Assembly: GCA_043827405.1 (NCBI GenBank) | Contig: JBDRPD010000083.1 | Span: 13,572-77,571 of the forward strand | Direction of reading: 5' to 3' | Source of the DNA: Elusimicrobiota bacterium | GTDB lineage: Bacteria > Elusimicrobiota > Elusimicrobia > UBA1565 | DNA length: 64,000 bases | Part shown: in pieces, positions 8,662 through 54,939 of the stretch | How positions within the stretch are numbered: position 1 is the stretch's first letter | How the letters are laid out: every line of letters begins with the position of its first letter | Translations under genes and position numbers: made by a program | The notes under the pieces: model-generated | The model's database searches: none | Seen by the model: the letters and a program-made list of their open reading frames with translations, nothing else | What the model was told of the DNA's origin: nothing

Positions 8662-8663
8662 AT

Positions 8664-9485: not shown

Positions 9486-10420
9486 GAAAGCGCTGCCTAA
9501 ATACAATCCATGAGCTCGCCCGCCGCAATAAAGATGTTGTTTTTGTCGGCTCCGATCTCGGCGCCGGTGTGCTGGAAGATATGAAGCAGGAGCTACCGGG
9601 ACAGTTTATGATGGAAGGCGTTTCGGAGCAGCATATCGTCGGCATGGCCGCGGGGCTAGCGATGAGCGGCAAAATAGTTTACATCAACACGATCGCGCCG
9701 TTTATTACGCGGCGCTGCTTTGAGCAGAACGTGATCGACCTGGGTTTGGCGAAGGCAAACGTTCGCTTGACGGGCAGCGGCGGGGGGCTCGTGTACGCGC
9801 CCTTGGGCCCGACGCATCTGGCGACCGACGACATCGCGATCATGCGTGCGATCCCAAACATGACCGTCATCGCTCCCGCGGATGCCGAAGAGATGGAGCG
9901 GGTCGTGCGGGCGTCAGAAACCTATGCCGGGCCGATTTATATCCGCATCGCCAAGGGCGGCGATCCGGTGGTGTCGTCTCCGGATCATCCCTTCGCTATC
10001 GGCGAGGCGGTCGTGCACCGCGATGCGGGCGAGGTTTTGTTCGTGACCACGGGCATTATGCTGGCGCGCTCTCTTGCCGCAACGGAGTCCCTGCGGAAGT
10101 CCGGTATCGAAGCGGGAGTCGTGCATTTGCATACCATTAAGCCGTTTGACGGTGAGACCGTGCTGCGTGCGCTGGGCGGAGCCCGCGTCGTTATTACACT
10201 GGAAGAGCATACGATCGTCGGCGGCCTGGGCAGCGCGGTCGCCGAGCTTATCGCAGAAAATATTTTTATTCGGACGCCGCTGCTGCAGCGCCTGGGCATT
10301 CCCGATGTATTCCCCGATCAGTACGGCTCGCAGGACTCGCTGCTGAAGCGCTTCGGGCTCGATGTGGAGAGCATTGTTCGGCGGACGGAAGAGAGCCTCG
10401 CCCGGACGGCAAAGCGATGA
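9482..10420 (+). CDS. Transketolase-like C-terminal subunit
   Basis: GVSEQHIVGMAAGLA, GPTHLATDD, PIYIRIAKG, TIKPFD, LEEH...GGLGSAVAE. ATGA overlap at 9482. Confidence 0.92.
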   Translation: MRKRCLNTIHELARRNKDVVFVGSDLGAGVLEDMKQELPGQFMMEGVSEQHIVGMAAGLAMSGKIVYINTIAPFITRRCFEQNVIDLGLAKANVRLTGSGGGLVYAPLGPTHLATDDIAIMRAIPNMTVIAPADAEEMERVVRASETYAGPIYIRIAKGGDPVVSSPDHPFAIGEAVVHRDAGEVLFVTTGIMLARSLAATESLRKSGIEAGVVHLHTIKPFDGETVLRALGGARVVITLEEHTIVGGLGSAVAELIAENIFIRTPLLQRLGIPDVFPDQYGSQDSLLKRFGLDVESIVRRTEESLARTAKR

Positions 10421-10908
10421 ACGCGGACGAGCCCGATATCCCTCCCGGGCTGGACCTTATTGTTGACCGGAGCGGCCGGACCGAGGCCTATTATTCGCGG
10501 TCGTCGCTGCCGGTAATCGATGCCGCCGCCGTCGAGTGGCTCAAGAATAAGGCTGCCGCGGCCGGTACCGCCCGCATCTGCCTGCATCTGGGGAAGGAAG
10601 ATCCTATTCACAGTATGATTATCGCCCACGCACCGTCCGGGGCGTTCGTCGTCCATAAGCATCTGACCCGGGATGAGGTCTATCATATGATCGAGGGCCG
10701 GCTGCGGGTGACGATCTATGGAGAGGACGGCAAGCCGTGTGAAACGAAGACCTTGGGGGCGCTCGGCTCCGGGCTTCCCTTCTTGTGCCGCGTACGTGCC
10801 GGCGCCTGGCACTCCAACGTGCCGGAAGACGGCACGGCGGTTTTTCACGAATCGCGGCCGGGACCGTTTAAGCCAGCCGACACCTTGACGGCGGACCGGA
10901 CGTCGTGA
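10417..10908 (+). CDS. wbuC: WbuC-family cupin-fold metalloprotein
   Basis: IHSMII...HKHLTRDEVYHMIEG...GAWHSN...FHESRPGPF cupin pattern, typical of O-antigen clusters. Confidence 0.7.
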   Translation: MNADEPDIPPGLDLIVDRSGRTEAYYSRSSLPVIDAAAVEWLKNKAAAAGTARICLHLGKEDPIHSMIIAHAPSGAFVVHKHLTRDEVYHMIEGRLRVTIYGEDGKPCETKTLGALGSGLPFLCRVRAGAWHSNVPEDGTAVFHESRPGPFKPADTLTADRTS

Positions 10909-12125
10909 TCCGTGTCCTGCGCCGCGGCGCACGGTATCTGGTGCAGCTGTGCGGCGCTGTCGTGATCCTGCTGCTGTACGCGGTAAAGCCGGTATTGTGG
11001 TTGCGGCTGGGGCGCCTGCACAGCGATCGGATTGGAATTCTGGCGGCGGGCACCGACCTGTTCCTGCGGCGGCGGCAGCTTGGCGACGTCGATCCTCGTA
11101 TTCGGCATTTGTTCGTCGCCCGGCCAACGTGCAACCGGCAGCTGCTCGAAATGTACCAGCGCCTTTTGCCGATTTATGAGAGCGCCGCGTTGTCCAAGAT
11201 TTACGATATTTGTGTGCCGCTGCTGAAGCATACGCCGTTTTATGAGCCGCTCGCCTTCCGTTGCGATGAATTCCGCGAGTTCGCCGAGGGTCGTAGGTCT
11301 TTGTCGTTTACTCCAGAGGAAGAGTTCCGCGGCAGAAAGCTGTTGGCGGAGATGGGGATCAAGGACGGTGATTGGTTCGTGTGCTTCCATAATCGGGATG
11401 GGGCCTATCTGACGCAGGAGTTCCCTGACCGGGATTGGAGTTATCATGATGAGCGCGACAACAGCATTGAAAACCTCTGCGCAGCGGTGCGCTATGTCGT
11501 GGACAGCGGCGGCGCGGCCGTTCGCATGGGCGCGGTGGTTCAGCATCCTCTTCCGGCGAGCTTCCAGCATCCTCGAATTATCGATTATGCGCGCAAGCAC
11601 CGGAGTGATTTTCTGGATATTTACCTGCTGGCCAAGTGCAAGTTTATGATCGGTTCGGATACCGGACTGGCTCAGGTCGCCACGGTGTTTGATGTCCCCG
11701 TCGCGAATACCAACTCCGTGTACAGCGACTGGGCGGCCTTCCGGCCGGACGATATCTTCATCACCAAGAAAGTGTATGACGTGAATGCGGAGAGGTATCT
11801 TGGTTACAGGGAGGCACTTTGCCGCGGCGTGTCCCTCACCGGGTTGGCGCTCCGCGACTACGAGAAGTCGGGATTGTCCTTGCACGAGAACACCGCGGCC
11901 GAGATCAAGGACCTAGTGCTGGAGATGAATGAGCGCCTGGATGGCGTCTGGAAAGTTGAGCCGGCGGATGAGGATTTGCAGCGCCGCTATTGTGAGATGT
12001 TCTCGGAGCGGGATTTCTGTTACGGTTTCCGTTCCCGCGTCGGCACCCGGTTTCTATGGGAAAACAAGAGTCGCATATTTGGGGACGGAGAAGGCGTAAT
12101 GCCGTCCCTTCAGCAAGGAGCTTGA
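10905..12125 (+). CDS. Putative glycosyltransferase, TIGR04372 family
   Basis: RIGILA, WFVCFHNRDGAYL, RDNSIEN, VRMG, DFLDIYLLAKCKFMIGSDTGL. Family recalled from these motifs, not searched. Confidence 0.72.
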   Translation: MIRVLRRGARYLVQLCGAVVILLLYAVKPVLWLRLGRLHSDRIGILAAGTDLFLRRRQLGDVDPRIRHLFVARPTCNRQLLEMYQRLLPIYESAALSKIYDICVPLLKHTPFYEPLAFRCDEFREFAEGRRSLSFTPEEEFRGRKLLAEMGIKDGDWFVCFHNRDGAYLTQEFPDRDWSYHDERDNSIENLCAAVRYVVDSGGAAVRMGAVVQHPLPASFQHPRIIDYARKHRSDFLDIYLLAKCKFMIGSDTGLAQVATVFDVPVANTNSVYSDWAAFRPDDIFITKKVYDVNAERYLGYREALCRGVSLTGLALRDYEKSGLSLHENTAAEIKDLVLEMNERLDGVWKVEPADEDLQRRYCEMFSERDFCYGFRSRVGTRFLWENKSRIFGDGEGVMPSLQQGA

Positions 12126-13384
12126 ACGTGTCCGGTACTACCAACAAGCGTGCCGTATTTCGTCGTAATACCTGCCGACTATGTGCCCGGGGCGGGCTGG
12201 AGCTTGTGCTGCGGCTGCCGCCGACGCCGCCGGGAGACCACTACATCAAGGCCGACCGCCTGAATGAGGCGCAGGCCTGCTATCCCATCGACCTGGCGCT
12301 CTGCCGCGACTGCGGCTTCGTGCAGCTCTTGGATGTGGTCGATCCGGATATTTTGTACGGAAACTACATTTACAGCACGCAGTCTTCGCCAGGGCTGGAT
12401 GAGCATTTCCAGAAATACGCGGACTCGACGATCGCGCGGCTTTCCATCCCGGCTGGTGCATTCCTCGTGGAGTTCGGCAGCAACGACGGTACGCTGCTGC
12501 GGCGCTTTAAAGAGCGCGGCGTCAAGACCCTTGGGGTGGACCCGGCGGCGGCGGTGGCTCGTGCCGCAACTGAGGCGGGCGTCGAAACGATTAACGCGTA
12601 CTTTACGGCGGAAGTCGCCGAGCGGATCGTCGCCGAGAAGGGGCGCGCCGACGTGATCATCGCCAATAATGTTGTCGCCAACATTGACGACCTGGATGCG
12701 GTCGGCGAGGCGGTGCGGCACCTGCTCGCTCCCGGCGGCGCGTTCGTCTTCGAGAGCGGCTACCTGCTCGATCTGGTGCGCAACAACGTCTTCGACAATA
12801 TTTATCACGAGCATTTAAGCTACCTGTCGGCTAAGCCGCTGGTTTCCTTTTTCCGCGGCAAGGGCATGGAGGTCGTGGATGTGGAGCATGTCCCGACAAA
12901 AGGCGGGTCGATCCGGGTGACGACGCAGCTGGCGGGCGGGGGGCGGCAGCCCGCCGCCTCGGTGGCTCAGGCCGTCGCCGAAGAGGAGTCGGCGGGCATT
13001 TATGCGCCGCAAACCTATACCGTCTACGGCCAGCGCCTGGCCAAAATGAAAGCGGACCTGCTGACGCTTCTCGACGCGCTGCGGGAGGAAGGTAAAAAAA
13101 TAGCGGGCTACGGCGCTTCCACCAGCGTCACCACGTTGGGCTACTACTTCGACGTCTGGGACAAGCTGGACTTTATCGTCGACGACAATCCTATCAAGCA
13201 GAATCGCTACACTCCCGGCGCGCATGTCCCGGTGCTGCCGTCCGACGCTCTGTATGAGAAGAAGCCGGACTATGTTGTGGTTCTTCCATGGCGCTTCGCC
13301 GAGCAGATCCGCGCCCGGCACAAAGTTTTCAGCGAGAAGGGCGGCCGCTTCATCGTCCCGGTGCCGGCGCTGGCCGTTTACTAG
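12122..13384 (+). CDS. NDP-hexose C-methyltransferase (N-terminal Zn finger, SAM domain, C-terminal domain)
   Basis: CRLC...CRDC Zn site, VEFGSNDG, IYHEHLSY, GGSIR, GYGA, DDNPIKQ, VLPW. Start uncertain (TTG 12122 or GTG 12128). Confidence 0.88.
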   Translation: MNVSGTTNKRAVFRRNTCRLCARGGLELVLRLPPTPPGDHYIKADRLNEAQACYPIDLALCRDCGFVQLLDVVDPDILYGNYIYSTQSSPGLDEHFQKYADSTIARLSIPAGAFLVEFGSNDGTLLRRFKERGVKTLGVDPAAAVARAATEAGVETINAYFTAEVAERIVAEKGRADVIIANNVVANIDDLDAVGEAVRHLLAPGGAFVFESGYLLDLVRNNVFDNIYHEHLSYLSAKPLVSFFRGKGMEVVDVEHVPTKGGSIRVTTQLAGGGRQPAASVAQAVAEEESAGIYAPQTYTVYGQRLAKMKADLLTLLDALREEGKKIAGYGASTSVTTLGYYFDVWDKLDFIVDDNPIKQNRYTPGAHVPVLPSDALYEKKPDYVVVLPWRFAEQIRARHKVFSEKGGRFIVPVPALAVY

Positions 13385-14479: not shown

Positions 14480-15574
14480 ATGAGTTTCAAGACCATCACC
14501 GCGCCCCATATCAACGCCAACGACGTCGAAATGGTACTTGTCGAATGGCATGTCCGCCCATGGCAGAAGATCGTAAAAGGCGAGCCGATATGCGACGTCG
14601 AGAGCACTAAGGCGCTGCTTACCGTTGAGGCCGATCGGGCGGGCTACGTCTATCCCTTGGTCGAAGAGAAAGCGACGGTGCGGGTCGGCGAGCCGCTGGC
14701 GCATGTTTTCGTCAAGAGCGATCCCGAGCAGCTGGCTGCCGTCGAGAAGAAGGCCGCCCGCGGCGGCACAATTGTTACAAAGAAAGCGAGGATTCTTATG
14801 CAGGAATTCGGGCTCACGGCTTCCGATTTTCCGGAGTTCACAAATATTAGTTCGGAGACGGTGGTGGCGAAGATTCGGGAGCGCAAGCTCGCTCCGGCGA
14901 CCGAGGGCGGTGCCGAGGCGCGTGAGGTGCGCTTGGACGATACGTCTGTGGTGCTGTACGGAGATGACCCGAACTTCGCGCTGCTGGCGTTGGATGCGTT
15001 TGCCGCCGGCGGGCGGTACTCGCCGGCGGCCTATGTCGGCGCGGCGCGAGGCGGAGAGTTCTATGGGATCCCCGCGCTACCTTCCGGCGCGCTGAGCGGG
15101 CTTATGGCGCGCGGCGCGCGGCGCGTGTTTATTTGCGGTTCGGATTGCGCGGCGCAGGTGCGGGAGTGTGAGGCTTTGGGATGGGAGATCGTTTCGGCGG
15201 TCCATTCTTCCGCAGTCGTCGCTGTTACCGCGCGTCTGGGCCGGGGCGTGTTCGTTGGCGCCCAGGCTGCGATCGGGCCGGACGCGGAAATCGGAGACTT
15301 CTGCCGGATACTGTGCGGGGCTTCGGTCGCCCACCACGGCCGGTTGGGCAAGTTCGTCAGCGTTTCCGACGGCGCCCGGCTGGGAGGGCACGTCTCGGTG
15401 GGGGACGGAAGCCTCATCGGCATCGGAGTGAATGTGAACAAGCGCGTGGCGATGGGGAAAGGGGTGGTCGTCGTCTCGGGCGTTACCGTGACCGACCATG
15501 TGCCGGATAAGCAGGTCGTGCGCGCCGCCGGACAAGGGAAGACGGATTATCAGCAGAGAGCGAAAGAGGAGTGA
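14480..15574 (+). CDS. Lipoyl domain + peripheral subunit-binding-like domain + PglD/NeuD-type left-handed beta-helix acyltransferase fusion
   Basis: Residues ~1-78 fit a lipoyl domain (VKGEPICDVESTKA, Lys44 at 14609-14611). VTKKARILMQEFGL resembles the PSBD helix. The C-terminus has hexapeptide repeats (VHSSAVV, LGRGVFVG, IGPDAEIG, VAHHGRLG, VSVGDGSLIG). Confidence 0.8.
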   Translation: MSFKTITAPHINANDVEMVLVEWHVRPWQKIVKGEPICDVESTKALLTVEADRAGYVYPLVEEKATVRVGEPLAHVFVKSDPEQLAAVEKKAARGGTIVTKKARILMQEFGLTASDFPEFTNISSETVVAKIRERKLAPATEGGAEAREVRLDDTSVVLYGDDPNFALLALDAFAAGGRYSPAAYVGAARGGEFYGIPALPSGALSGLMARGARRVFICGSDCAAQVRECEALGWEIVSAVHSSAVVAVTARLGRGVFVGAQAAIGPDAEIGDFCRILCGASVAHHGRLGKFVSVSDGARLGGHVSVGDGSLIGIGVNVNKRVAMGKGVVVVSGVTVTDHVPDKQVVRAAGQGKTDYQQRAKEE

Positions 15575-15576
15575 CT

Positions 15577-16611
15577 ATGTATCTGCGACATAACGATATG
15601 CCGGACATCGTCCGGCTTGAATTGACGAACACCTGCAATATGTCGTGCCCTCACTGCCGGCATCATAGCCCGGAAAAGAGGAGGCCGGAGAACTACGCCG
15701 AGTACTACAAAAACCAAACGAACATGACGGAGGAACAGGTGGGGGCGATCTTCGATGAGATCGGGCCGCACAAGCCTTCGATGACGCTCAATGTGGCCAA
15801 TGAGCCGCTTATCGCGCCGGCCTTCCCGTTCGCGGTGCGCAAGGTTCGGGAGCACGGGATCGCGGGAACCTTCAACACCAACGGGATCGCGCTGACGGAG
15901 AAGATCGCCCGTCTTCTCGTGGATGTCGAATTCGACTCGATCAATATTAGCGTCGACGCCCTGACTCCGGAGACTCTAAAAAAGGCGCGCGGCATCACGG
16001 CGCTGGATAAGCTGGTGCGGAACGTCGAAATGCTGGTAGAAATCCGCGGCGGCAAGCGCTTTCCCCGCATCGGAGTGACCTTCGTGGAGATGGACTACAA
16101 CGTCCATGAAATACCGGAGTTTCTGGAGTTCTGGAAGAAGCGCGTCGATGTGATCCGAATCACTGGCTACATCTCCGACAATAAGCCGGATGTCAAGAAG
16201 TTCCCGACAGGACGCAAGGAGGGGTTGCCGGATCGAGTGCCGTGCAAGCAGCTGTTTCGCGATATCGTCATCCGCGCCAACGGCGACGTGACTCCGTGCG
16301 TGATTACTTCAGAAAACCCTGATCCGGTGCTCAGTGTCGGCAATATATTCAAGGATGGCGGCATCCGCGCGGTGTGGAACGGCCGCGCCATGCAGAAGCT
16401 GCGTGACATGCACAACAGCGGGAAATGGGAAGATATTTCATACTGTGCGCCGTGCGACTACTGGGTGGAGACCTTTGAGATGAAGGAGGAGCGGCGGGAC
16501 GGCTTCTTTATCCGAACGCCCTCGCCCTACACCGCGTTCTATAACGTCGAGGAGAGAATGGCGAACTGGAACAAGAAGCTTCTCGACCGGCAAGGGATGG
16601 GCGAACTTTGA
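15577..16611 (+). CDS. Radical SAM protein with C-terminal SPASM/twitch domain
   Basis: TNTCNMSCPHC (CxxxCxxC), ANEPL, FNTNG, ISVDA. C-terminal PCKQLF...VTPC...VGNIFK...CAPC. ATG 15577. Confidence 0.9.
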   Translation: MYLRHNDMPDIVRLELTNTCNMSCPHCRHHSPEKRRPENYAEYYKNQTNMTEEQVGAIFDEIGPHKPSMTLNVANEPLIAPAFPFAVRKVREHGIAGTFNTNGIALTEKIARLLVDVEFDSINISVDALTPETLKKARGITALDKLVRNVEMLVEIRGGKRFPRIGVTFVEMDYNVHEIPEFLEFWKKRVDVIRITGYISDNKPDVKKFPTGRKEGLPDRVPCKQLFRDIVIRANGDVTPCVITSENPDPVLSVGNIFKDGGIRAVWNGRAMQKLRDMHNSGKWEDISYCAPCDYWVETFEMKEERRDGFFIRTPSPYTAFYNVEERMANWNKKLLDRQGMGEL

Positions 16612-17513
16612 GCTTCCAGCTGAGCCGGGTCCTGCTGCTGGGGCATAGCGGCTTTATCGGTTCCGCGCTGGCGCGGCGGCTTCATGAAAGCCGGCCGGGG
16701 ATTGAGGTCGTCGGTCTGTCCTACCCGCCCTTCGACCTGACAGCACAGGAGCGGATAGCGGAGCTGCGGGAGGAACTGCGGCCGGGAACTGCCGTGGTCA
16801 TGTTGTCGGCGGTCAAGCGGCAGAGCGGCGACACGCTGGAGAACTACCTGCAGAACCAGATGATGGTGGTTAATTTGTGCCGGGCGCTGGAGGGACGCAG
16901 CTCCGTGCGCGTCGTATTCTTCAGCTCGACCGCGGTTTACGGCGAGGATGTGCACAATACCGAAATCACCGAGGCGACGCCGGTCCGTCCGCGCTCCTAT
17001 TATGGGATGGCGAAGTACTCCGGGGAGCGGATTCTCGCCAAGGCGTTCCAATCCGACAACGGGCGCGGGCTCGTCCTGCTGCGGCCCGCCACCGTCTATG
17101 GCGCCGGTGAACCCGGCACGGGTTATACGCCCACGGGCTTTCTGCGCAAGATGCGCGGTGGAGAGCGTCTGACACTGTGGGGCGACGGCAGCGAGTTGCG
17201 CGAGTTTATATATATCGATGATCTGACCGCGCTGACCGAGCGCCTGATCTTCAGCGACTTCTCCGGGGTGGTCAATATCGTTAGCGGCCGGAGCCGCACC
17301 TTCCAGGAGATCGCCGCGGCCGCTGTGCAGCTCGTCGGGGGAGGAGAAGCTCCCGACCGCAAGCCGAGGAGCAAGGATAAAGTTGACAACTGCTTCGTTC
17401 CCACTTATGTGCCGCGGCTTTTCCCTGAATTCACGTTCACTAGTATCGAGGACGGGATGCGGCGGATCAACGAGCTGGAAGCGGCTGCAGCTTCCGCCGG
17501 TGGCGTGAAATGA
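16608..17513 (+). CDS. NAD-dependent epimerase/reductase (extended SDR)
   Basis: LLGHSGFIGS, FFSSTAVYG, YGMAK, REFIYIDD. Confidence 0.85.
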   Translation: MSFQLSRVLLLGHSGFIGSALARRLHESRPGIEVVGLSYPPFDLTAQERIAELREELRPGTAVVMLSAVKRQSGDTLENYLQNQMMVVNLCRALEGRSSVRVVFFSSTAVYGEDVHNTEITEATPVRPRSYYGMAKYSGERILAKAFQSDNGRGLVLLRPATVYGAGEPGTGYTPTGFLRKMRGGERLTLWGDGSELREFIYIDDLTALTERLIFSDFSGVVNIVSGRSRTFQEIAAAAVQLVGGGEAPDRKPRSKDKVDNCFVPTYVPRLFPEFTFTSIEDGMRRINELEAAAASAGGVK

Positions 17514-18715
17514 GCTGTCGGCAATGCGGTAAGACTGAGTTGGAGGAGCTCATTCAATGCGGCCCCCAGCCTATAGGCAATAGGTTCCTGGAATCGCGCG
17601 AACTAGAGGAATATCTTCATCCGCTTACGCTCGGCCAGTGCTCCGGTTGTGGAATTGTTCAGCTGACTGAGTCGCCCCCCGCCGAGGAGCTGCGCCCCCG
17701 GCTGGATTGGATTACCTACAGCGAGCCCGAGGCGCATCTGGACGCGCTGGCTGACAGGATCGCGGCGTTGGAGGGGCTGCCCGACGGCGCCGTTATCTGC
17801 GGTGTCAGCTTCAAGGATGATTCCATGCTGCGGCGCATGCGCGAGAGGGGATGCGGCGCTACCTGGCGCGTCGACATCGAGCGGGATCTGGGAGTCGCGG
17901 GCGCGGGTGCCGGGGTAGAGACCGTCCAGGCTCGCTTGACGCGGGGCAGGGCTGCAGCGCTGGCGCGGGAGCACGGCCCGGCGGATGTGGTCATCGCGCG
18001 GCATATTCTTGAGCACGCCTTCGATCCGCGAGAGTTCCTGGCGGCGGTTCGGTGTCTCGGCAAGCCTGGCGCGTATGTGGTATTCGAGGTTCCGGATTGC
18101 TCAGCGTCGATCGAGCGGCTGGATTACTGCGTTATCTGGGAGGAGCACGTGGTGTATTTCTCGCCGGAAACCTTTCGCGACTGCCTGCGTCGCGCCGGCT
18201 TAGTACCGGTGTATTTCGACATGGTGCCGTACCCGATGGAGAATTCGCTTATCGGCATCGGCCGCGCCGGCGCCGGCGGCAGCGGCTCCGGGGAGGATAT
18301 GTCCGCGAAGGTTTTGGAAGCCGAGCTGCGTCGGGGCCGGGCTTTCGCCGACGGCTTCCCCCGTCGTCGGGACGCGCTGCGCGGTCGGCTCGCCGCGCAC
18401 GCGGAGAAAAACGAGAAGATCGCGCTTTTCGGCGCCGGACATCTGGCCTGCACCTTCGTCAGCCTGCTGGGTCTGGGTAAATACATCGAGTTTGTGGCCG
18501 ACGATCATCCGTACAAGAAGGGGATGTTCATGCCGGGCTCGAAGCTGCCGATTATGGGCTCCATGGCGCTGCTGGACCGCGGCGTCCGTCTTTGCCTGCT
18601 TAGTCTTAACCCGAATAATGAGGAGGCGGTGATAAGCAACAACCGCGAATTTGTTGACCGGGGGGGAGAGTTCTTTTCGATCTTTCCGGCCAGCAAGCGC
18701 GCGCTGAAACCCTGA
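17510..18715 (+). CDS. NDP-hexose C-methyltransferase-like protein (second copy)
   Basis: CRQC...CSGC Zn site, RHILEH, FEVPD, WEEHVVYF, LFGAGH, DDHPYKKGMFMPG. SAM motif I looks degenerate. Confidence 0.75.
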   Translation: MSCRQCGKTELEELIQCGPQPIGNRFLESRELEEYLHPLTLGQCSGCGIVQLTESPPAEELRPRLDWITYSEPEAHLDALADRIAALEGLPDGAVICGVSFKDDSMLRRMRERGCGATWRVDIERDLGVAGAGAGVETVQARLTRGRAAALAREHGPADVVIARHILEHAFDPREFLAAVRCLGKPGAYVVFEVPDCSASIERLDYCVIWEEHVVYFSPETFRDCLRRAGLVPVYFDMVPYPMENSLIGIGRAGAGGSGSGEDMSAKVLEAELRRGRAFADGFPRRRDALRGRLAAHAEKNEKIALFGAGHLACTFVSLLGLGKYIEFVADDHPYKKGMFMPGSKLPIMGSMALLDRGVRLCLLSLNPNNEEAVISNNREFVDRGGEFFSIFPASKRALKP

Positions 18716-18720
18716 CCCGT

Positions 18721-20499
18721 ATGCGAGCCTTTAGATTTATCCGCGAGATCTATAATAAATTTCCCGTCCTGCTTGTCGCCTGTATATCCCTCTGGGTTAT
18801 GGTCGGCGTTTTCGAGGCGGCCGCCATCTTTTCGGTCGCTCCGGTAGTCGATTTGCTTATTCATCCGGAGTTGGAAGGCGCGAGTCCCCTAACTGTGAGT
18901 CTGGTCGGTATTCTTGAGCGAGTCGGGCTGTCCGCTACGCTGGCGACGGTGCTGGGTGTTTTCGTCGTCTTTAGCTTGTTTAAGAGCCTTTTTCAGCTCT
19001 TCGCCCGGCATCTTATCCTGCGCGCGAAATACGCGGTCCAGCAGGATTTGATAGTCGGGACGTTTCACGATTTTTTCCATGCCCGCTGGCACTTCTTCGC
19101 CAGTGATCGGCAGGGCAAGCTGCTCAACACCTTCATCCGTGAGATGGGCGTCGTCGGTAACGCTTTCGGTGCGATGGCATTGTTCTTCGCGGCGCTGCTG
19201 CAGCTCGTTATGTATATGGCCGTTCCGCTGTACTTATCGTGGAGGATCACCGCGGTCAGCACCGCCGCGACGCTGATCTTCGGGGCGCCTTTTTTGCTTT
19301 TGGGCGGCATCAGCTACCGCCTGGGTAAGCGCAATACATCCACCGCCAATGATCTGTCTTCGGTCATTAGCGAGAGTTTAAGCGCGGTGAAGATCATCCT
19401 CGGCTTCGGCAATCCCGACAAGAACGTCGAAATGGTCGACCGGACCTACGACGCGCACCGCCGAGTGACTCTCATTTCCCAGACCCTGGACGTGGGGATT
19501 CCGATCCTGTACCTTCCCATCGGGCTGTCCATTATGGCGGTCGCCCTCATCGCCGGCAGGCGCTGGGGGGTGCCGCTGGCCGAATCGGCCGCCGTTTTGT
19601 ATTCCTTGCTGCGGATGGTCCCTGTTATTGGCCAGGTTCTGCAGCAGAAGACCTCCCTTGATAATTTTTTTCCCAGCTACGAGCAGGTCTTAAGCTTGCG
19701 CCGGCGAGCCACAGAACTGCGCCAGGAATCAGGCGCGCGGCTCTTCATCGGGATGAACAGCGAGATTCGACTGCATGGCGTGAGCTTCGCCCACCCCGGG
19801 AATGAGCCCATCCTGCGCGGCATCGATCTCGTGGTTCCTAAAGAAAAAATGATCGCCATCGTCGGTGAATCCGGCGCCGGCAAATCATCCCTGATCGATC
19901 TGATCATGGGCTTCCACCCCCCGACCGCGGGAAAAATAACGGTAGACGGGACGCCGCTGCCCGCGTTCGATATCTACTCGTACCGGCGGCGGATCGGTTA
20001 TGTGCCGCAGGAAAGCGTCCTGTTTAATATGAGCATCCGCGACAATCTGCAGTGGGCCAAGGAAGACGCGTCGCAGGAGGAGATCGAGAAGGCCTGCCAG
20101 CAGGCGAACGCCGCCGGCTTCATTAAGGATCTGCCGGAAGGCTATGCTACCATCGTCGGCGACCGCGGTGTCCGGCTCTCGGGCGGGCAGGTCCAGCGCG
20201 TGGCGTTGGCCCGGGCGATACTGCGCAAGCCGGATCTGCTGATCCTCGATGAGGCGACAAGCGCTCTGGATACGAAGTCCGAGCGCATGATTCAGCAGTC
20301 GATCGAGGAGTTGGCCAAGAAAACCACTCTTATTGTGGTGGCGCACCGGCTGTCGACCATTGTCCAGGCGGATTATATTTACGTCCTGGGCAAGAGCGGC
20401 TTGGTTGAGGAAGGGAGCTACGCCGAGCTGATGGCCAAGAAGGGGCTTTTCGCGCGCATGGCGGAATACCAGGAGCTCAGCGATCCGCAGGCCGCTTAG
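18721..20499 (+). CDS. ABC exporter with fused TMD and NBD (MsbA/PglK/Wzk-like, possible glycan flippase)
   Basis: N-terminal hydrophobic helices. GESGAGKS Walker A, LSGGQ signature, LILDEATS Walker B, VAHRLS. Confidence 0.92.
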   Translation: MRAFRFIREIYNKFPVLLVACISLWVMVGVFEAAAIFSVAPVVDLLIHPELEGASPLTVSLVGILERVGLSATLATVLGVFVVFSLFKSLFQLFARHLILRAKYAVQQDLIVGTFHDFFHARWHFFASDRQGKLLNTFIREMGVVGNAFGAMALFFAALLQLVMYMAVPLYLSWRITAVSTAATLIFGAPFLLLGGISYRLGKRNTSTANDLSSVISESLSAVKIILGFGNPDKNVEMVDRTYDAHRRVTLISQTLDVGIPILYLPIGLSIMAVALIAGRRWGVPLAESAAVLYSLLRMVPVIGQVLQQKTSLDNFFPSYEQVLSLRRRATELRQESGARLFIGMNSEIRLHGVSFAHPGNEPILRGIDLVVPKEKMIAIVGESGAGKSSLIDLIMGFHPPTAGKITVDGTPLPAFDIYSYRRRIGYVPQESVLFNMSIRDNLQWAKEDASQEEIEKACQQANAAGFIKDLPEGYATIVGDRGVRLSGGQVQRVALARAILRKPDLLILDEATSALDTKSERMIQQSIEELAKKTTLIVVAHRLSTIVQADYIYVLGKSGLVEEGSYAELMAKKGLFARMAEYQELSDPQAA

Positions 20500-26183: not shown

Positions 26184-27134
26184 GTGAGCATGATAGCAAA
26201 AGAGGGTTTACCGGTCGGTGAGCTGTGGCGACGAATGCTGTTGATCCGGCGCTTTGAAGAGAACCTGCTGCGGATGTTTGGGCAGGGCGAGATCTTCGGC
26301 ACCACACACTGCTGTATCGGCCAAGAAGCCAACGCCGTTGGCATAGCCTCCTGCCTGCGGCCGGGTGATTTCGTGGTCAGCAACCACCGTTGCCATGGAC
26401 ACTATCTGGCGCGCACCGGTGATGTGGAGGGGCTGCTCGCGGAGATGATGGGACGGTCGGCGGGGGTCGTCGGCGGCAGAGGGGGGTCTCAGCATCTGCA
26501 CGCAGAGAACTTTATTTCGAATGGAATCCTCGGCGGCGGCACGCCTATCGCGGTCGGAACCGCGCTCGCGCATAAACTGGAAAAATCCGATGCGGCAACA
26601 GTTTGCTTTATTGGTGATGGGACTTTCGGCGAAGGGGTTCTCTACGAAGCGCTTAACATGGCATCCTTGTGGGGGGTACCGGTCCTTTTTGTGGTTGAGA
26701 ATAACCATTATTCACAATCGACGCCGATCATGAAAAACCTGGCGGGGAGTCTGCGCGGGCGTTTCGACGCTTTCGGGATTGCGGCGCAGGAGATCGAGAG
26801 CTTCGATGTGGCGGAGATTCGCAGCGCCGCTGATAAGCTTCTGGAAGATATGCGGCGGCGTGTCCGACCGGCGGCTTTACTCATAAGTACCTACCGTTTT
26901 TGTCACCATTCCAAGAACGATGACGCGCGCGATCCGGCGGAGGTCGCGCGGTGGAAAAAACGTGATCCCGTCGACGCCTTGCGGGAAACTGTCGACGCCG
27001 GCGAGCTCGAGCGGGCCGAACAGGAGATCGAGCAGCGCCTGAAACAGGCGGAGCGCGCGGCCAGCGAGAGCCCGGAGCCGGCGCTCACCGCGCGGCATCT
27101 TGATCCCTATTTTACCAGCGATGAGATACGTTAA
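26184..27134 (+). CDS. ThDP-dependent 2-oxoacid dehydrogenase E1 alpha-like subunit
   Basis: TTHCCIGQEA, SNHRCHGH, GRGGSQH, FIGDG...EALN...VENNHYSQST, TYRFCHHS. Start at GTG 26184 or ATG 26190. Confidence 0.92.
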   Translation: MSMIAKEGLPVGELWRRMLLIRRFEENLLRMFGQGEIFGTTHCCIGQEANAVGIASCLRPGDFVVSNHRCHGHYLARTGDVEGLLAEMMGRSAGVVGGRGGSQHLHAENFISNGILGGGTPIAVGTALAHKLEKSDAATVCFIGDGTFGEGVLYEALNMASLWGVPVLFVVENNHYSQSTPIMKNLAGSLRGRFDAFGIAAQEIESFDVAEIRSAADKLLEDMRRRVRPAALLISTYRFCHHSKNDDARDPAEVARWKKRDPVDALRETVDAGELERAEQEIEQRLKQAERAASESPEPALTARHLDPYFTSDEIR

Positions 27135-28134
27135 GCGGCTCAACGAGGCCTTGGCCGGCCTGCTCGCCGATGACCCCAAGATCGTGCTGCTGGGCGAAGA
27201 TATCGCCGATCCTTACGGCGGCGCCTTCAAGGTTACCCGCGGCCTGTCTACGCGCTTCCCCGAGCGGGTATTCTCAACCCCGGTAAGCGAGGCCGGCTTT
27301 ACCGGCGTCGCGGTCGGCCTGGCGCTTAAGGGCTTCAAGCCCGTCGTCGAGATTATGTTCGGCGACTTCATCACTCACTGCGCCGATCAGATAGTCAACC
27401 ACGCGGCCAAGCTCGGCTGGTACCGCGATCCCGAGCGCGGGGTGCCGCTGGTTTTTCGCACGCCGATGGGCGGCGGCCGCGGCTACGGCGCGACGCATTC
27501 GCAGTCCCTTGAGAAAATGTTTCTTGGCGTGCCGTTTGTGCATGTCGTCGCCGGCAATCTGCTGACCGATCCCGGCGATCTTCTCACGCAGGCGCTCCGG
27601 CTGGACCGGACCGTTCTCTTCATCGAACATAAGCTGCATTACGGCAGGGAGTTGCTGGACGAAACCGCCGATGAGTTGGGCGCGTTTCGCATCACGATGA
27701 CTACTGGAGACTTTCCGACAGCGACGATTGCGATCGCCGACGGCGCCGCGCCGCAGGCGACCTTGGTCGCCTATGGCGCGATGGCCGACCTTTGCCTTGA
27801 GGCTTCGCGCCGTCTGTTTGTTGAAGATGAGGTCGAAGCGGAAGTCGTGGTCCCGTCGCGGATTAAGCCTTTCCCGCTCGATCCGATCATGGCGTCCGTG
27901 CGGCGGACCGGCCGGCTCGTCGTCGTCGAGGAGGGGACGGAGGGCTTCGGCTGGGGCGCGCAGGTCGTCTGCACTTTGCTGGAGCGCGGCGCCGCGTTCG
28001 CCGCGCCGCCCAAGGCCATCGCCGCGGCGGCCTGCCCGCTGGCGGGCTCTCCGTATCTCGAGAAGATGCTCCTGCCGCGGACGGATGATATCGTCGCCGC
28101 GGTGCGGTCGATTATGGCAGGGAGGAAATTATGA
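27121..28134 (+). CDS. 2-oxoacid dehydrogenase E1 beta-like subunit
   Basis: LLGEDIADPYGGAFKVTRGL, FSTPVSE, EIMFGDF, YGATHSQS, FIEHK, VVVEEG. ATG 27121. Confidence 0.92.
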   Translation: MRYVKRLNEALAGLLADDPKIVLLGEDIADPYGGAFKVTRGLSTRFPERVFSTPVSEAGFTGVAVGLALKGFKPVVEIMFGDFITHCADQIVNHAAKLGWYRDPERGVPLVFRTPMGGGRGYGATHSQSLEKMFLGVPFVHVVAGNLLTDPGDLLTQALRLDRTVLFIEHKLHYGRELLDETADELGAFRITMTTGDFPTATIAIADGAAPQATLVAYGAMADLCLEASRRLFVEDEVEAEVVVPSRIKPFPLDPIMASVRRTGRLVVVEEGTEGFGWGAQVVCTLLERGAAFAAPPKAIAAAACPLAGSPYLEKMLLPRTDDIVAAVRSIMAGRKL

Positions 28135-28346
28135 GAAGCATGCGGATGGCCGGGCTTGCCGTGTCCATCTTCCTGGCCGGGGCGCTTCCCGCGCATGCCT
28201 ATCTCGATCCCGGCTCCGGCAGCATGTATCTGCAGCTGCTGCTGGGCGGGCTCGCCGGCATTGGCCTGGTTCTTAAGATATTCTGGGGAAATATCCTGGA
28301 GATGTTCGGCCTTGGCAGGAAGGACGACGACGGCAAGGCCGAGTAG
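28131..28346 (+). CDS. Small membrane protein of the YLDPGxGS type
   Basis: Signal-like N-terminus ending AHA, then YLDPGSGS and one TM helix. ATGA-coupled to E1 beta and 3 nt before the next gene. Confidence 0.7.
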   Translation: MRSMRMAGLAVSIFLAGALPAHAYLDPGSGSMYLQLLLGGLAGIGLVLKIFWGNILEMFGLGRKDDDGKAE

Positions 28347-28349
28347 CGC

Positions 28350-29741
28350 ATGGGATACGATACGGCCTCCTTCCGGGATCGCAGCGGCCGCGTTCTGCTC
28401 GCGGACGGCGCCGTCTATCGCTGCCTGAGCGCCGGAGCCCTCGCGGATTGGAACCGCCTGAAAGATACCGCCTTCTTTCGCCGCATGACGGATGACGGAC
28501 GGCTGGTGGGTACCCGCGAAGCCGACGCCGACAAAAGCAGCCGGCTGATGCCGCCGGGGGATTGGATCGGCCTGCTGGAGCATGACGTCATCCCGTTTGT
28601 TTCCTACCCGTATGAGTGGAGCTTCGGCATGCTGCGCGACGCCGCTCTGCTGCAGCTCGATATCCTCCTCGCCGCCCTGCGGGAAGGCCTGACGCTTAAA
28701 GACGCTTCCGCATTCAATATCCAATGGCGCGGCGCGCGTCCGGTGTTTATCGATATGCTGTCGTTTGCGCCGTACCGGAAAGGCGCGCCCTGGGCGGGAT
28801 ACCGCCAATTCTGCCAGATGTTTCTCTACCCGCTGTTCCTGCAGGCGTACCGCGATGTGCCGTTTCATCCCTGGACGCGCGGCGCGATAGAGGGGATCAC
28901 CCCCGAACAATGCCGCCGCCTGCTGTCGCTGCGCGACCTGCTGCGCCCCGGAGTGTTTACCCACGTCTACCTGCAGGCGAAGCTGCAGGAGCGCTGCGGC
29001 GGCGCCGGCCGCGACGCGCGGAGTGATCTTGAGCGAGTGGGATTCGATGAGAAGCTTATTCGCGCGAACCTGAGGTCTCTGCGCGGCCTGGTGGAGTCGC
29101 TGCATTGGCGGCCCGCGCGCTCCGAGTGGTCGGAGTACGGAGATGATCATAGCTATGCCGCGGAAGATCATGCGGCGAAAAAGGCGTTTGTTGAGGAGGC
29201 CGCGGCGGAGAAGCGGCGGACGCTGGTTTGGGATCTCGGCGCCAACCGCGGGGATTTCTCACGTCTCGCCGCCGAGCATGCCGACTGTGTCTTGGCCATG
29301 GACGCCGATCACCTCGTCGTAGAGCGTCTGTACCAGGAACTAAAGAAGGACGGCCGCGATAATATCCTGCCGCTGGTGATGAACGTCGCAGACGCCTCGC
29401 CGGGGCTCGGTTGGCGCGGCGCGGAGCGCCGGAGTCTGCCGGAGCGGGGGCGGCCCGGACTGGTCCTTTGTCTCGCCCTGCTGCACCATATGGTCATCAC
29501 CCATAATATTCCGCTCGCAGAGTTCGTCGCCTGGCTGGCTGAGCTGGGCGGGGACTTGGTTATTGAATTTATCGACAAGCAGGACCCGATGGTGCGCCGG
29601 CTGCTGCTTAATAAGGCGGATCAGTACGCGGATTATGAACGTTCTTGTTTCGAGTCCTGCCTGTCTCGTTATTTTACGATCGTGCGGCAGCAGGCGCTGT
29701 CCGGCGAGCGGCGGGTTCTGTACTATGGGCGGCGTAAATGA
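28350..29741 (+). CDS. noeA: NoeA-like protein: N-terminal kinase-like region plus C-terminal SAM methyltransferase
   Basis: SFRDRSG start, IPFVSYPYEWSF, LKDASAFN, FIDMLSF, C-terminal WDLGANRG motif I. Resembles rhizobial NoeA from memory. Confidence 0.7.
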   Translation: MGYDTASFRDRSGRVLLADGAVYRCLSAGALADWNRLKDTAFFRRMTDDGRLVGTREADADKSSRLMPPGDWIGLLEHDVIPFVSYPYEWSFGMLRDAALLQLDILLAALREGLTLKDASAFNIQWRGARPVFIDMLSFAPYRKGAPWAGYRQFCQMFLYPLFLQAYRDVPFHPWTRGAIEGITPEQCRRLLSLRDLLRPGVFTHVYLQAKLQERCGGAGRDARSDLERVGFDEKLIRANLRSLRGLVESLHWRPARSEWSEYGDDHSYAAEDHAAKKAFVEEAAAEKRRTLVWDLGANRGDFSRLAAEHADCVLAMDADHLVVERLYQELKKDGRDNILPLVMNVADASPGLGWRGAERRSLPERGRPGLVLCLALLHHMVITHNIPLAEFVAWLAELGGDLVIEFIDKQDPMVRRLLLNKADQYADYERSCFESCLSRYFTIVRQQALSGERRVLYYGRRK

Positions 29742-30595
29742 TTCTCATCACCGGGGCCGACGGCGCGGTCGGCTCCTACGCCGAGGAGGTCTTTGCGGGC
29801 GAGCGTCTGCATCTCGGGACGCTGGAGACGCTGGACGTTACCGACCCGGATAAGGTTTTGACGCTATGCCGCGAATTGCGGCCGGCGGCGGTGGTGCATC
29901 TCGCTTCCGAAACGGACGTGGATCGCTGCGAGAAGGAGCGCGCGCATGCCTTCCGCGTCAACGCGGATGGCGCCGCGAACGTCGCGGCGGCCTGCCGGGA
30001 AACCGGGGCGGTTATGGCGTATGTCAGCACGGGCATGGTGTTCGACGGGAGCAAGGACGAGCCCTATGTCGAGTCTGACCCCGTCGCGCCGGGCAACGTT
30101 TACGCAGAATCCAAGCTGGCGGGTGAAGAGGCGGTGCGCAGGGAGCTGGAGCGCTTCTTTATCGTTCGCACCAGCTGGCTGATCGGCGGCGGCAAGCGCG
30201 ATAAGAAATTCGTAGCCAAGATCCTGCGTCTGCTGGGGGAGCGGGATCGCATCGAGGTCGTCAGTGATCTCTACGGCACGCTCACCTATGGAAGGCAGCT
30301 GCTGCTGCAGATCAAGGCGCTGTTGGCCACCGAGCATTACGGCGTTTTCCATGCAGCCAATCCGGGTAAAGTCTCGCGTTTTGACATCGCGCAGGAGATC
30401 GTGCGCCTGATTGGGAGCTCGGCCGAAGTCGTGCCGGTCGGCGCCGAGCGCTTCCCGCTGCCGGCGCCCCGCGGAAAGTCAGAGGTGCTGTCGGTCGCCA
30501 AGCTGGAGGCGCTGGGGCTGTGCCGCATGACCGATTGGCGGCGGGCCTTGGCCGAGTATCTGGAAGAGCTGAAGCGGATAGGGAGGTGGGAATAG
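29738..30595 (+). CDS. rfbD: dTDP-4-dehydrorhamnose reductase family
   Basis: LITGADG, TDVDRCE, YVSTGMVFDG, YVESD, NVYAESKLAGEE, RTSW, VVSDLYGTLT. Confidence 0.85.
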   Translation: MILITGADGAVGSYAEEVFAGERLHLGTLETLDVTDPDKVLTLCRELRPAAVVHLASETDVDRCEKERAHAFRVNADGAANVAAACRETGAVMAYVSTGMVFDGSKDEPYVESDPVAPGNVYAESKLAGEEAVRRELERFFIVRTSWLIGGGKRDKKFVAKILRLLGERDRIEVVSDLYGTLTYGRQLLLQIKALLATEHYGVFHAANPGKVSRFDIAQEIVRLIGSSAEVVPVGAERFPLPAPRGKSEVLSVAKLEALGLCRMTDWRRALAEYLEELKRIGRWE

Positions 30596-30597
30596 GG

Positions 30598-31437
30598 ATG
30601 GGGATATTGCCCGAATGGCTGCGCCGCGTACTTCCTGAAAAGGTCCTGGTGGGGCTGCGCAAGACTCATGACGCCGCGCGCGCGGTTCCGTTCGCTTTCG
30701 GCAGCCGTTTCGAGCGGTGCGCGGTGCGAGGCTTGGCGATTGAGTTGCTGGTGACCAGCGGCATCGAGCATTATCGCGCCGAGACCTATGCCTCCAAGGA
30801 GCCGGGTACCTTGGACTGGCTGGACGCCGAGCTGCGGGAAGGCGACGTGCTCTACGACGTCGGAGCGAATATCGGCCTATATTCGCTCTACGCCGCCCAG
30901 AGGGCGCCGGGCTGCGCGGTTTTTGCGTTCGAGCCGGAGGCGCAGAACTTCGCGCACCTATGCCGCAATATCCATCGCAATGGGCTGACACAGATCGTTC
31001 CTGTCTGTGTGCCGCTGTCCGATAGGGAAGAGTTCGCCCGGCTGCACGTGACCGATATGGCGGCGGGCACCGCTTTCCATTCGCTGCACGCTCCCTCGAC
31101 CCAACGATCGGATGGTGTGCGCTCCGTGCTCGAGCAAGGCGCGCTGGCGACGTCGCTTGACCACATGACGGAGAAGCTGGGCCTGCCGGCGCCGAGCCTG
31201 CTCAAGCTCGATGTCGACGGACATGAGCTGCAGATCGTTAAGGGCATGCGATCGCTGTTGGGGTCGGGAAAGATCCGCAGCCTGATGGTTGAGATCAACG
31301 GCGAGATCGAGGGCGAGAGCGCGAGCCCCATTCCCAAGCTATTAACGGAATGCGGCTACGTTTTGGCGGCGACTTCCGACGGCGAAGCCATTCGCCGGGG
31401 CGATACCTCGCGCAATTGCGTGTTCAAGAGGAAGTAG
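30598..31437 (+). CDS. FkbM-family methyltransferase
   Basis: YDVGANIGLYS, FAFEPE, LKLDVDGHE. ATG 30598. Confidence 0.88.
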   Translation: MGILPEWLRRVLPEKVLVGLRKTHDAARAVPFAFGSRFERCAVRGLAIELLVTSGIEHYRAETYASKEPGTLDWLDAELREGDVLYDVGANIGLYSLYAAQRAPGCAVFAFEPEAQNFAHLCRNIHRNGLTQIVPVCVPLSDREEFARLHVTDMAAGTAFHSLHAPSTQRSDGVRSVLEQGALATSLDHMTEKLGLPAPSLLKLDVDGHELQIVKGMRSLLGSGKIRSLMVEINGEIEGESASPIPKLLTECGYVLAATSDGEAIRRGDTSRNCVFKRK

Positions 31438-48217: not shown

Positions 48218-48447
48218 CGTCCCACTCCATGTTCCGCTAAAACTTTTACGATCCCCGAGAACGTCAGAAGCTGCGCGATTTGCTCTTTGCTGAATGTCAG
48301 ACTGAACTCTGACTGCAGGGCTCCGACTAGCTTGACGTACATGATCGAATCCCAGAATTCCAGGCTCCTAAAATTGTCGGCTTCCCGGATGCTGTCTATG
48401 TTCTCGTCTAGTACGCGCTCTAGAATTTCTTTTAGTTTTTCGTTCAT
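48214..48447 (-). CDS. Acyl/peptidyl carrier protein
   Basis: 77 aa, acidic, with FWDSIMYV phosphopantetheine serine motif; lies next to the SDR and adenylation genes. Confidence 0.85.
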   Translation of the reverse strand: MNEKLKEILERVLDENIDSIREADNFRSLEFWDSIMYVKLVGALQSEFSLTFSKEQIAQLLTFSGIVKVLAEHGVGR

Positions 48448-48496
48448 GTTCGCGATTCCTGTTAAAAGCTTTAGTGGTTTTTAAAAATTTATCAGT

Positions 48497-51262: not shown

Positions 51263-51266
51263 CTGT

Positions 51267-52884: not shown

Positions 52885-52903
52885 GACGGGTTCGGCGTCG
52901 CTC

Positions 52904-53530: not shown

Positions 53531-53533
53531 GCC

Positions 53534-54844: not shown

Positions 54845-54939
54845 CTTTATGCTTCCTCTCTTGGGCGGCGATTCTCTAGCGCGGTTCGGGATATGAACCT
54901 TAAGCAGGGCGTATTCCAAATATTATCAAAGTAATAGGT

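Follow-up and report, generated by a model that had tools for sequence, protein, structure and literature searches.

In the tetrahydroisoquinoline and scleric acid pathways, the QncN/QncL/QncM and SclQ1-4 proteins are described as turning a ketose phosphate into a glycolicacyl unit by way of thiamine diphosphate (ThDP), a lipoyl domain and an acyl carrier protein (ACP), and QncN/L/M is a published relay in which a unit formed on an E1 protein travels via a lipoyl arm to an acceptor that is not coenzyme A (CoA) (PMC6335953). In deoxysugar pathways, the proposed role of E1-like pairs (AviB1/AviB2 and Pau11/Pau12) is C-C bond formation on a keto sugar, which would give the C-4 acetyl branch of eurekanate or paulomycose (PMC4753412). 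Here we describe an E1 alpha/beta pair (E1ab) encoded in a glycan locus of an Elusimicrobiota bacterium, on a stretch of 64,000 nucleotides (hereafter the window; contig JBDRPD010000083.1, positions 13,572 to 77,571), together with a lipoyl-tagged sugar acyltransferase from the same locus that we propose as its partner. We reason that E1ab probably acylates the lipoyl arm of this fusion protein, and that the fused transferase would then N-acylate the product of a DegT aminotransferase, an amino sugar of a surface glycan, without CoA. What we say of function draws on sequence, structure models and gene neighbourhood, whereas the anatomy of the proteins and the linkage of their genes are direct observations.

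This system resembles the QncN type (QncN/L/M, SclQ1-4, RenH/RenI and NapB-D) in several respects: the E1 proteins fall in the same clade (44.6-50% identity) and share its signatures, E1 alpha and beta are sometimes fused, the lipoyl domain of the fusion has an ETSKA-like motif and is followed by a short element that may resemble a peripheral subunit-binding domain (PSBD), and a ThDP adduct would likewise pass via a lipoyl arm to a non-CoA acceptor. It differs in that the catalytic domain of the window's fusion is a PerB/PglD-type beta-helix instead of a 2-oxoacid-dehydrogenase acyltransferase of the chloramphenicol acetyltransferase (CAT) type, in that the acceptor is presumably a nucleoside diphosphate (NDP)-amino sugar and the setting a glycan locus instead of a non-ribosomal peptide synthetase (NRPS) cluster, and in that no ACP was found among the window genes scanned with Pfam. 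With the pyruvate, acetoin and branched-chain 2-oxoacid dehydrogenase complexes it shares the E1 fold, the ThDP motif, the conserved catalytic residues and, on the partner, a lipoyl-lysine arm with a candidate subunit-binding element; unlike them, the locus is without an E2 core and E3, the E1 proteins score below the equivalog cut-offs and form a separate clade, and the presumed product is a sugar amide rather than an acyl-CoA.

The two E1 genes overlap by 14 nt:

26190-27134, + strand: E1 alpha (ThDP-binding) of a QncN-like clade, 314 aa, ATG start; PF00676, E 1e-53
27121-28134, + strand: E1 beta (pyrimidine-binding plus transketolase C-terminal domain), 337 aa, ATG start; PF02779, E 1e-26, and PF02780, E 1e-17

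The starts originally listed were a GTG at 26184 for alpha, two codons upstream of the ATG used here, and a TTG at 27100 for beta, in frame and upstream of the ATG; we adopted the ATG starts of both subunits, which were also chosen when genes were called independently on a Logan contig of a groundwater metagenome. The ATG-start alpha product is present in the protein database, and the GTG-start version (316 aa) is without a record. Since the Logan contig is identical to the window across 20,945 bp, the gene arrangement is no assembly artefact. On the opposite strand, a PMT_2/GT39-like gene (start 26168) diverges from the E1 alpha start at 26190 with ~21 nt between the start codons, so that both promoters would lie inside neighbouring coding sequence or one of the starts is miscalled.

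The alpha subunit carries the ThDP motif GDG (residues 142-144)...ENN (170-172), and its H240 aligns on the His of 'HGHS' in human E1 alpha (YRYHGHSMSD). In the beta subunit, the Glu of 'TPVSEAGF' aligns on that of TPISEMGF in the human and TPLAESG in the Geobacillus enzyme, and the 'ATHSQS' His on a conserved His (human 'AQHSQC', Geobacillus 'ELHSDS'); we take the aligned alpha and beta active-site His to be the residues implicated in reductive acylation of lipoamide. Human PDHA1 matches the window E1 alpha at 1e-43, and human and Geobacillus E1 beta match the window E1 beta at 1e-44. From these alignments we assign the pair to the heterotetrameric 2-oxoacid dehydrogenase E1 superfamily, with its ThDP motif intact.

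We then considered whether the pair is an ordinary catabolic pyruvate/acetoin dehydrogenase E1, served by a canonical E2 and E3 elsewhere in the genome and placed among glycan genes by accident. Its best PDB and NCBIfam matches are indeed pyruvate dehydrogenase (PDH) E1 alpha and beta, the Joint Genome Institute (JGI) name of its homologues is 'pyruvate/acetoin dehydrogenase alpha subunit', and our view of the genome is a single 64-kb window. Against the PDH E1 equivalog models of NCBIfam (TIGR03182/TIGR03181 for alpha, NF006667/NF008854 for beta), however, E1 alpha reached 265 bits on TIGR03182 (cut-off 393.85) and E1 beta 203 bits on NF006667 (cut-off 321). A protein database search with the E1 returned 5,452 relatives at E <= 1e-20, and the best E1 alpha relatives are short proteins (~305-320 aa) from many phyla that are 50-57% identical to it. 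In a neighbour-joining tree of 93 E1 alpha sequences (100 bootstraps), 90 of them, including that of the window, form one clade with a bootstrap of 100/100 on a long branch (0.30), which parts the pair from the Sinorhizobium pdhA (L093), the Thermus acoA (L094) and a canonical Brevibacillus E1a-E1b-E2-Lpd operon (L096; L numbers are our own handles for related loci). Inside the clade are the QncN-type E1s, namely RenH and that of a Streptomyces ACP-E1a-E1b-E2 set (L092). Clade signatures lie in active-site regions: GTTH[TC][YC], HR[CGS]HGH, YAQSTP, a GGSQH that replaces the canonical GGSMH and is followed by a 3-residue deletion, and an HSKGDD followed by a 2-residue deletion. As the survey below shows, a canonical-type E2 accompanies the clade in 1/67 related loci, and that E2 looks QncL-like. 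The tree largely refutes the housekeeping reading, which we regard as very improbable, and its topology indicates that the pair is not the housekeeping PDH. The preliminary description of this DNA had proposed an E1 alpha/beta pair with intact ThDP motifs and a role other than housekeeping: the Pfam matches, the GDG...NN motif and the beta Glu are all in place, and a grouping with housekeeping enzymes did not appear among the 93 sequences. Its suggested comparison with QncN/L-type enzymes proved apt, in that these share the fully supported clade with the window E1.

One of the outgroups is a set of some interest in itself. The Sinorhizobium fredii plasmid pSF45436d, a symbiosis-type plasmid, carries at 4205-9330 of L093 an acsA-pdhA-E1beta-E2-ACP operon, another E1/E2 set that ends in an acyl carrier protein and lies outside the window's clade.

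To learn what accompanies this E1 clade, one genome per species was scanned with two clade motifs, which gave at least 571 confirmed relatives; the best 80 of these E1-anchored loci were profiled, and 67 had enough downstream DNA to be evaluable. Downstream of E1 we found the following:

48/67 loci: a fusion of a lipoyl domain with a PglD/PerB-type beta-helix after E1a-E1b, at a median gap of ~45 nt
1/67 loci: a frameshifted fusion of the same lipoyl plus PglD/PerB type after E1a-E1b
10/67 loci: a lipoyl domain with a stretch that looks more clearly PSBD-like (ATRKAAELAERHGLDLSAIDKRGFITEKDVEELL), then a hexapeptide transferase of another kind and a C-terminal extension
2/67 loci: a lipoyl domain, then the contig end
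1/67 loci: an E2-type catalytic domain
5/67 loci: no lipoyl protein

In all, the E1 clade is coupled to a lipoyl-tagged beta-helix acyltransferase in 61/67 evaluable loci (48+1+10+2). Pfam finds Biotin_lipoyl plus Hexapep on 3/10 proteins of the second type. Of the five loci that have no lipoyl protein, four are also without E1 beta and look like remnants. In three loci whose homologues are 55% identical (L002-L004), E1a, E1b, a Biotin_lipoyl + PglD_N + Hexapep protein and a DegT gene are contiguous, downstream of genes for an initiating phosphoglycosyl transferase and GT4 glycosyltransferases; across the 48 loci with the PglD-type fusion, DegT lies within the fetched locus in 20. Among the best annotated plasmid matches is RenH of the renieramycin cluster (L091), a fused E1ab followed by the E2-like RenI, while the Streptomyces L092 set sits inside an NRPS cluster and a Streptantibioticus cattleyicolor locus is of the same QncN kind. 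The cassette ranges over several hundred species or more, in Chloroflexota, Actinomycetota, Myxococcota and Acidobacteriota.

Several variants of the cassette were seen along the way. E1 alpha and beta form a single open reading frame (ORF) of ~670-720 aa in L005 (7984-10008), L008 (5445-7673), L050, L059, L064, L069, L085 and RenH (L091), and this fusion apparently arose in more than one lineage. The second class of lipoyl-transferase (~490-520 aa) occurs in L013 (7433-8998), L010 (2176-3672), L087 (4702-6171) and seven similar Actinomycetota loci, and its conserved C-terminal extension ends ...RKRGIR(L/F)EPGPW.Y.GGL. In four Chloroflexia loci (L044, L046, L063 and L076), E1 alpha stands alone after Bac_transf and EamA genes, as if the cassette had decayed.

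The window itself holds a protein of the type found beside E1 in these relatives. A lipoyl-domain profile had one match in the whole window (14480-15571), in a gene with this anatomy:

14480-15574, + strand: lipoyl-acyltransferase fusion, proposed partner of E1ab; PF00364 (E 2e-8) and PF00132; TIGR03570 (NeuD/PglB/VioB)
Residues 1-77 of the fusion: lipoyl domain, with Lys44 at nt 14609-14611
Residues ~98-135 of the fusion: two-helix element, a candidate PSBD
Residues ~156-238 of the fusion: PglD_N-like Rossmann-like domain
Residues ~240-340 of the fusion: PerB/PglD-type left-handed beta-helix (LbH), with His285 at nt 15332-15334

The AlphaFold (AF2) model of the fusion has a mean predicted local distance difference test score (pLDDT) of 74, with the two helices of the linker element (101-109 and 125-135) modelled at ~80 and an extra helix between the lipoyl domain and this element. 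Foldseek with the model retrieved full-length E2 models first (~200 aligned columns), then PerB, then lipoyl domains. The model superposes on the L2 lipoyl domain of the human pyruvate dehydrogenase complex (PDC) with a root-mean-square deviation of 1.3 A, and Foldseek by itself cannot separate lipoyl from biotinyl domains; a profile of 22 fusion sequences, in which K44 and H285 are invariant, matched E2p lipoyl domains at 1e-19 and had no biotinyl carrier among its top 60 PDB sequence matches. The Lys44 motif (E-S/T-S/T-K-A/S) resembles that of QncL-like E2s. A profile of the linker aligned to the PSBD position of a related E2 (that of L080; E 1e-3 at Z = 10,000); on E. coli AceF/SucB its top alignments, which are not significant, fall between the lipoyl and catalytic domains.

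In its C-terminal 200 residues, the fusion is a relative of PerB, PglD, VioB and NeuD. The 22-sequence profile matches PerB (4ea7) at 2e-44 over residues 158-349 and places His285 on PerB His141, which is the mutated position in 4eaa and 4eab. Both the LbH and the N-terminal Rossmann-like domain of that family are present, PglD_N is annotated on fusion homologues, and DegT is adjacent. The TIGR03570 score (105.7, cut-off 160.8) makes it a divergent member of the PglD/PerB/NeuD acyltransferases. Unlike these, the fusion has ~150 extra N-terminal residues, comprising the lipoyl domain and the linker element, and is genetically coupled to E1ab, which implies that an acyl donor bound to a protein replaces or supplements acyl-CoA. 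The window's fusion subfamily is rare, with 25 protein database matches and one genome locus (L008). All four contexts recovered for close fusion homologues (L005-L008) have E1 directly upstream: L005 and L008 encode alpha and beta in a single fused ORF, L007 has them split, and L006 shows a remnant of E1 beta where its contig ends.

The genes around the fusion belong to a module that recurs in L005 and L008:

10905-12125, + strand: TIGR04372 glycosyltransferase, with homologues in L005 and L008
12056-13384, + strand: NDP-sugar C-methyltransferase, with homologues in L005 and L008
13391-14479, + strand: DegT/DnrJ/EryC1-type sugar aminotransferase (PF01041, E 1e-83), abutting the fusion and 55% identical to the L005 DegT
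15571-16611, + strand: radical S-adenosylmethionine (SAM)/SPASM protein, 64% identical to its L008 counterpart
16608-17513, + strand: short-chain dehydrogenase/reductase (SDR) epimerase, by Pfam
17510-18715, + strand: second C-methyltransferase-like gene, by Pfam
18721-20499, + strand: ATP-binding cassette (ABC) exporter, 50% identical to its L005 counterpart

The first two (10905-13384) are 33-52% identical to their homologues in the L005/L008 modules, and the DegT product is presumed to be the amine acceptor. In L008 the order is C-methyltransferase, DegT, TIGR04372 glycosyltransferase, radical SAM/SPASM, E1ab, fusion and ABC exporter; in L005 it is cupin, C-methyltransferase, B12-radical SAM, DegT, glycosyltransferase, ABC, E1ab and fusion, followed by nonulosonic-acid genes that match the window at 48.5-54.9 kb (- strand) with 45-72% identity. 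The window has the same module in one piece at 10.9-20.5 kb, apart from E1ab, which is found 5.7 kb past the ABC gene. With the module intact save for E1ab, the E1 pair and the fusion each lack the neighbour that is constant elsewhere, and they share one locus.

Other genes of the locus deserve mention. The nonulosonic-acid block of the window (~45240-54919, - strand) encodes a class-III aminotransferase, a methyltransferase, WbqC, a GH43-like protein, a cytidine monophosphate (CMP)-transferase-like protein, a 372-aa protein and NeuB, as well as an SDR, an AMP-binding ligase and a second hexapeptide transferase; its GC content of 0.49-0.58, against ~0.62 elsewhere in the window, suggests a separately acquired segment. 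A split transketolase pair on the + strand, 8658-9485 (Transketolase_N) and 9362-10420 (Transket_pyr plus Transketolase_C), lies 4 kb upstream of the fusion and is a second ThDP enzyme that could carry out C2 transfer or branching on a sugar. We rejected it as a conserved loader of the lipoyl arm, as L005 and L008 have E1ab and no transketolase. Further upstream, 2498-4063 (+ strand) encodes 521 aa with an N-terminal cytidylyltransferase-like and a C-terminal PfkB kinase domain, an order that is reversed in HldE.

Downstream of E1ab, a tightly packed run of genes follows:

28131-28346, + strand: 71-aa membrane-like (small hydrophobic) ORF, with a 4-nt overlap (ATGA) with E1 beta
28350-29741, + strand: 463-aa methyltransferase-like gene, after a 3-nt gap
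29738-30595, + strand: RmlD, with a 4-nt overlap with the 463-aa gene; TIGR01214, 257 bits, above cut-off
30598-31437, + strand: FkbM methyltransferase, after a 2-nt gap

These genes (28131-31437) are co-transcribed with E1ab and yet are not conserved with it: homologues of the 71-aa ORF, the 463-aa gene and RmlD each occur in 0/80 E1-anchored loci, and those of FkbM in 2/80. The 463-aa gene, whose family has 7,884 database matches (54-61% identity among the matches listed), had no match in a Pfam scan; it has a weak FkbM-like stretch, and its homologues are labelled SAM-dependent methyltransferases in databases. A hydrophobic ORF of ~70 aa and a methyltransferase-like protein of ~465 aa recur as a pair in the window (28131-29741), L097 (7790-9398) and L098 (7724-9407), and in the latter two, from unrelated genomes, they lie next to sulfatase-family genes with no E1 nearby.

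The preliminary description had read E1ab as the head of a glycan-modification operon without E2 or E3, and much of that picture stands. The surrounding annotation bears out a glycan locus; phmmer searches with the E. coli AceF/SucB catalytic domains and Lpd against all six-frame ORFs of the window gave no match to an E2 catalytic core or E3, and Pfam scans of most candidate window genes found no E2, E3 or lipoate ligase; and the profile search agrees that the window's sole lipoyl domain is on a sugar acyltransferase ~11 kb upstream of the pair. The operon with RmlD and FkbM is upheld by the packing, whereas tying the function of E1ab to these coupled genes is not upheld by the 80 loci. The name 'NoeA-like' for the 463-aa gene found no confirmation in its Pfam scan, its FkbM-like stretch or its homologues.

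The same description had offered, as an alternative, that E1ab adds a C2 branch directly to an NDP-keto sugar. Spelled out, an AviB1/AviB2-type carboligase would need no lipoyl partner: it would attach a pyruvate-derived C2 unit to an NDP-4-keto-deoxy sugar as a C-acetyl or hydroxyethyl branch, and RmlD and the methyltransferases would finish the sugar. The published precedent is real (AviB1/AviB2 and Pau11/Pau12; PMC4753412), and the window shares with the published description an E1 alpha/beta-like pair without E2/E3 in a deoxysugar setting; moreover, the genes transcribed along with E1ab include an RmlD 4-ketoreductase homologue and methyltransferases, and the dehydratases and C-methyltransferases of the locus point to keto-sugar intermediates. 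However, those downstream genes are nearly absent from the E1-anchored loci, the window's E1 clade has a conserved lipoyl neighbour (61/67 loci) where the AviB and Pau systems are proposed to work with no lipoyl protein, an otherwise partnerless lipoyl-acyltransferase of exactly the partner type is present in the same locus, and the split transketolase could equally serve C2-branching. Direct branching is thus less supported than the lipoyl relay, and we consider it unlikely.

A different chemistry for E1ab and the fusion also has to be weighed: the pair could serve sugar O-acylation (NeuD-like), make acyl-CoA or acyl-ACP for another enzyme, or leave the lipoyl domain a regulatory or tethering role with acetyl-CoA as the donor. 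The NeuD/PglB/VioB family includes O-acetyltransferases, a DegT gene lies within the fetched locus in just 20 of the 48 fusion loci, and His rather than Asp follows the catalytic His in the window's fusion subfamily. On the other hand, the best structural relatives (PerB, PglB, PglD and VioB) are N-acetyltransferases of 4-amino sugars, DegT abuts the fusion both in the window and in L002-L004, and lipoyl domains that accompany E1 are not known to have any role but that of a catalytic swinging arm. Taken together, these alternatives strike us as improbable.

We therefore favour the lipoyl relay, which we envisage as follows. E1ab would form a C2 adduct on ThDP, which would be hydroxyethylidene-ThDP if the donor is pyruvate or, as reported for the related QncN enzymes, dihydroxyethyl-ThDP if it is a ketose phosphate, and this adduct would reduce and acylate the dithiolane on lipoyl-Lys44 of the fusion, which the short PSBD-like element may dock on E1. 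The acyl-dihydrolipoyl arm would then swing into a beta-helix active site of the same trimer, where His285 would activate the amino group of the NDP-4-amino-deoxy sugar supplied by DegT, giving an N-acyl (acetyl or glycolyl) sugar with no CoA thioester, and the dihydrolipoyl arm would be re-oxidised by an E3 encoded elsewhere. The system would in effect be an E2 whose chloramphenicol-acetyltransferase-like core has been swapped for a sugar N-acyltransferase; beta-helix acyltransferases can accept carrier-bound thioesters, as LpxA and LpxD do. In the window genome, the E1 genes would have moved out of the module to a place 5.7 kb downstream of it, where they would now stand before unrelated glycan genes.

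The nature of the acyl group is about evenly balanced between glycolyl and acetyl. PDH-like ancestry suggests pyruvate as the donor and an acetyl group, whereas membership of the QncN clade and the shared polar substitutions (GGSQH for GGSMH, HRCHGH and GTTH) suggest a ketose phosphate and a glycolyl group, and glycolyl transfer would explain why acetyl-CoA is bypassed. The most specific version, a CoA-independent PDH-like assembly built on a trimeric beta-helix transferase that carries a C2 unit from ketose phosphate to an N-glycolyl (hydroxyacetyl) group on 4-amino sugars or nonulosonic-acid precursors, is one we put forward tentatively, as a possibility that may well prove wrong.

Several observations weigh against the relay. 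E1ab and the fusion are 10.6 kb apart in the window and in different operons, so that their pairing rests on comparative genomics. The window E1 alpha is 42-50% identical to the E1s beside its own fusion subfamily and up to 54.5% identical to others, and its placement within the clade has a bootstrap of 5; as the E1s of its own subfamily are not the closest and the tree does not resolve within the clade, co-evolution speaks neither for nor against the pairing. The tree was built without AviB1, Pau11 and AlmDI sequences. Pfam E3_binding (PF02817) matches the linker at a sub-threshold E of 0.03-0.1, in the L002-L004 type alone, and leaves the window type unmatched. No E3 or lipoate ligase was found near the system in the window or its relatives. 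Finally, the reason to bypass acetyl-CoA stays unexplained unless the acyl group is something other than acetyl.

A thioredoxin-reductase-like flavoprotein (~320 aa, CATCDG) lies ~5-6 kb upstream of the cassette in many Chloroflexota (L015, 2053-3057; L024, 3687-4673; L072, 3811-4791) and is the only disulfide reductase seen near the system. It gave weak 'Lpd' matches in Anaerolineales loci; we set it aside as a dedicated E3 and take it as probably a case of conserved synteny.

In the searchable full-text literature, which leaves subscription journals mostly outside, we found no account of a lipoyl-tagged sugar acyltransferase with an E1 coupled to it; apparent matches were unrelated, being a Leptospira transcriptome and a use of 'lipoylation' for the lipidation of flagellin glycans. 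NCBIfam (June 2026) has no model that reaches its curated cut-off on E1 alpha, E1 beta or the fusion, and databases label the E1 homologues 'pyruvate/acetoin dehydrogenase' and the fusion homologues 'NeuD family acetyltransferase'. PDH complexes, QncN/L/M and PerB/PglD already provide the parts and the principle of the relay; it is the combination that appears undescribed.

Knowledge of the modifying enzymes behind unusual N-acyl groups is described as scarce in a paper that reports a possible N-glycolyl legionaminic acid (PMC5378307). If our reading is right, the lipoyl swinging arm would be a third means of acyl delivery to beta-helix sugar acyltransferases, beside acyl-CoA and acyl-ACP, and the E2 core of a 2-oxoacid dehydrogenase-type system would be exchangeable for an unrelated transferase fold. 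It would also assign a role to a cassette that at least 571 species-level genomes carry, now labelled a dehydrogenase plus a NeuD acetyltransferase, and make it a candidate source of such N-acyl groups on the amino sugars and nonulosonic acids of bacteria; the N-glycolyl version, if true, would be a hydroxylase-free bacterial route to N-glycolyl sugars.

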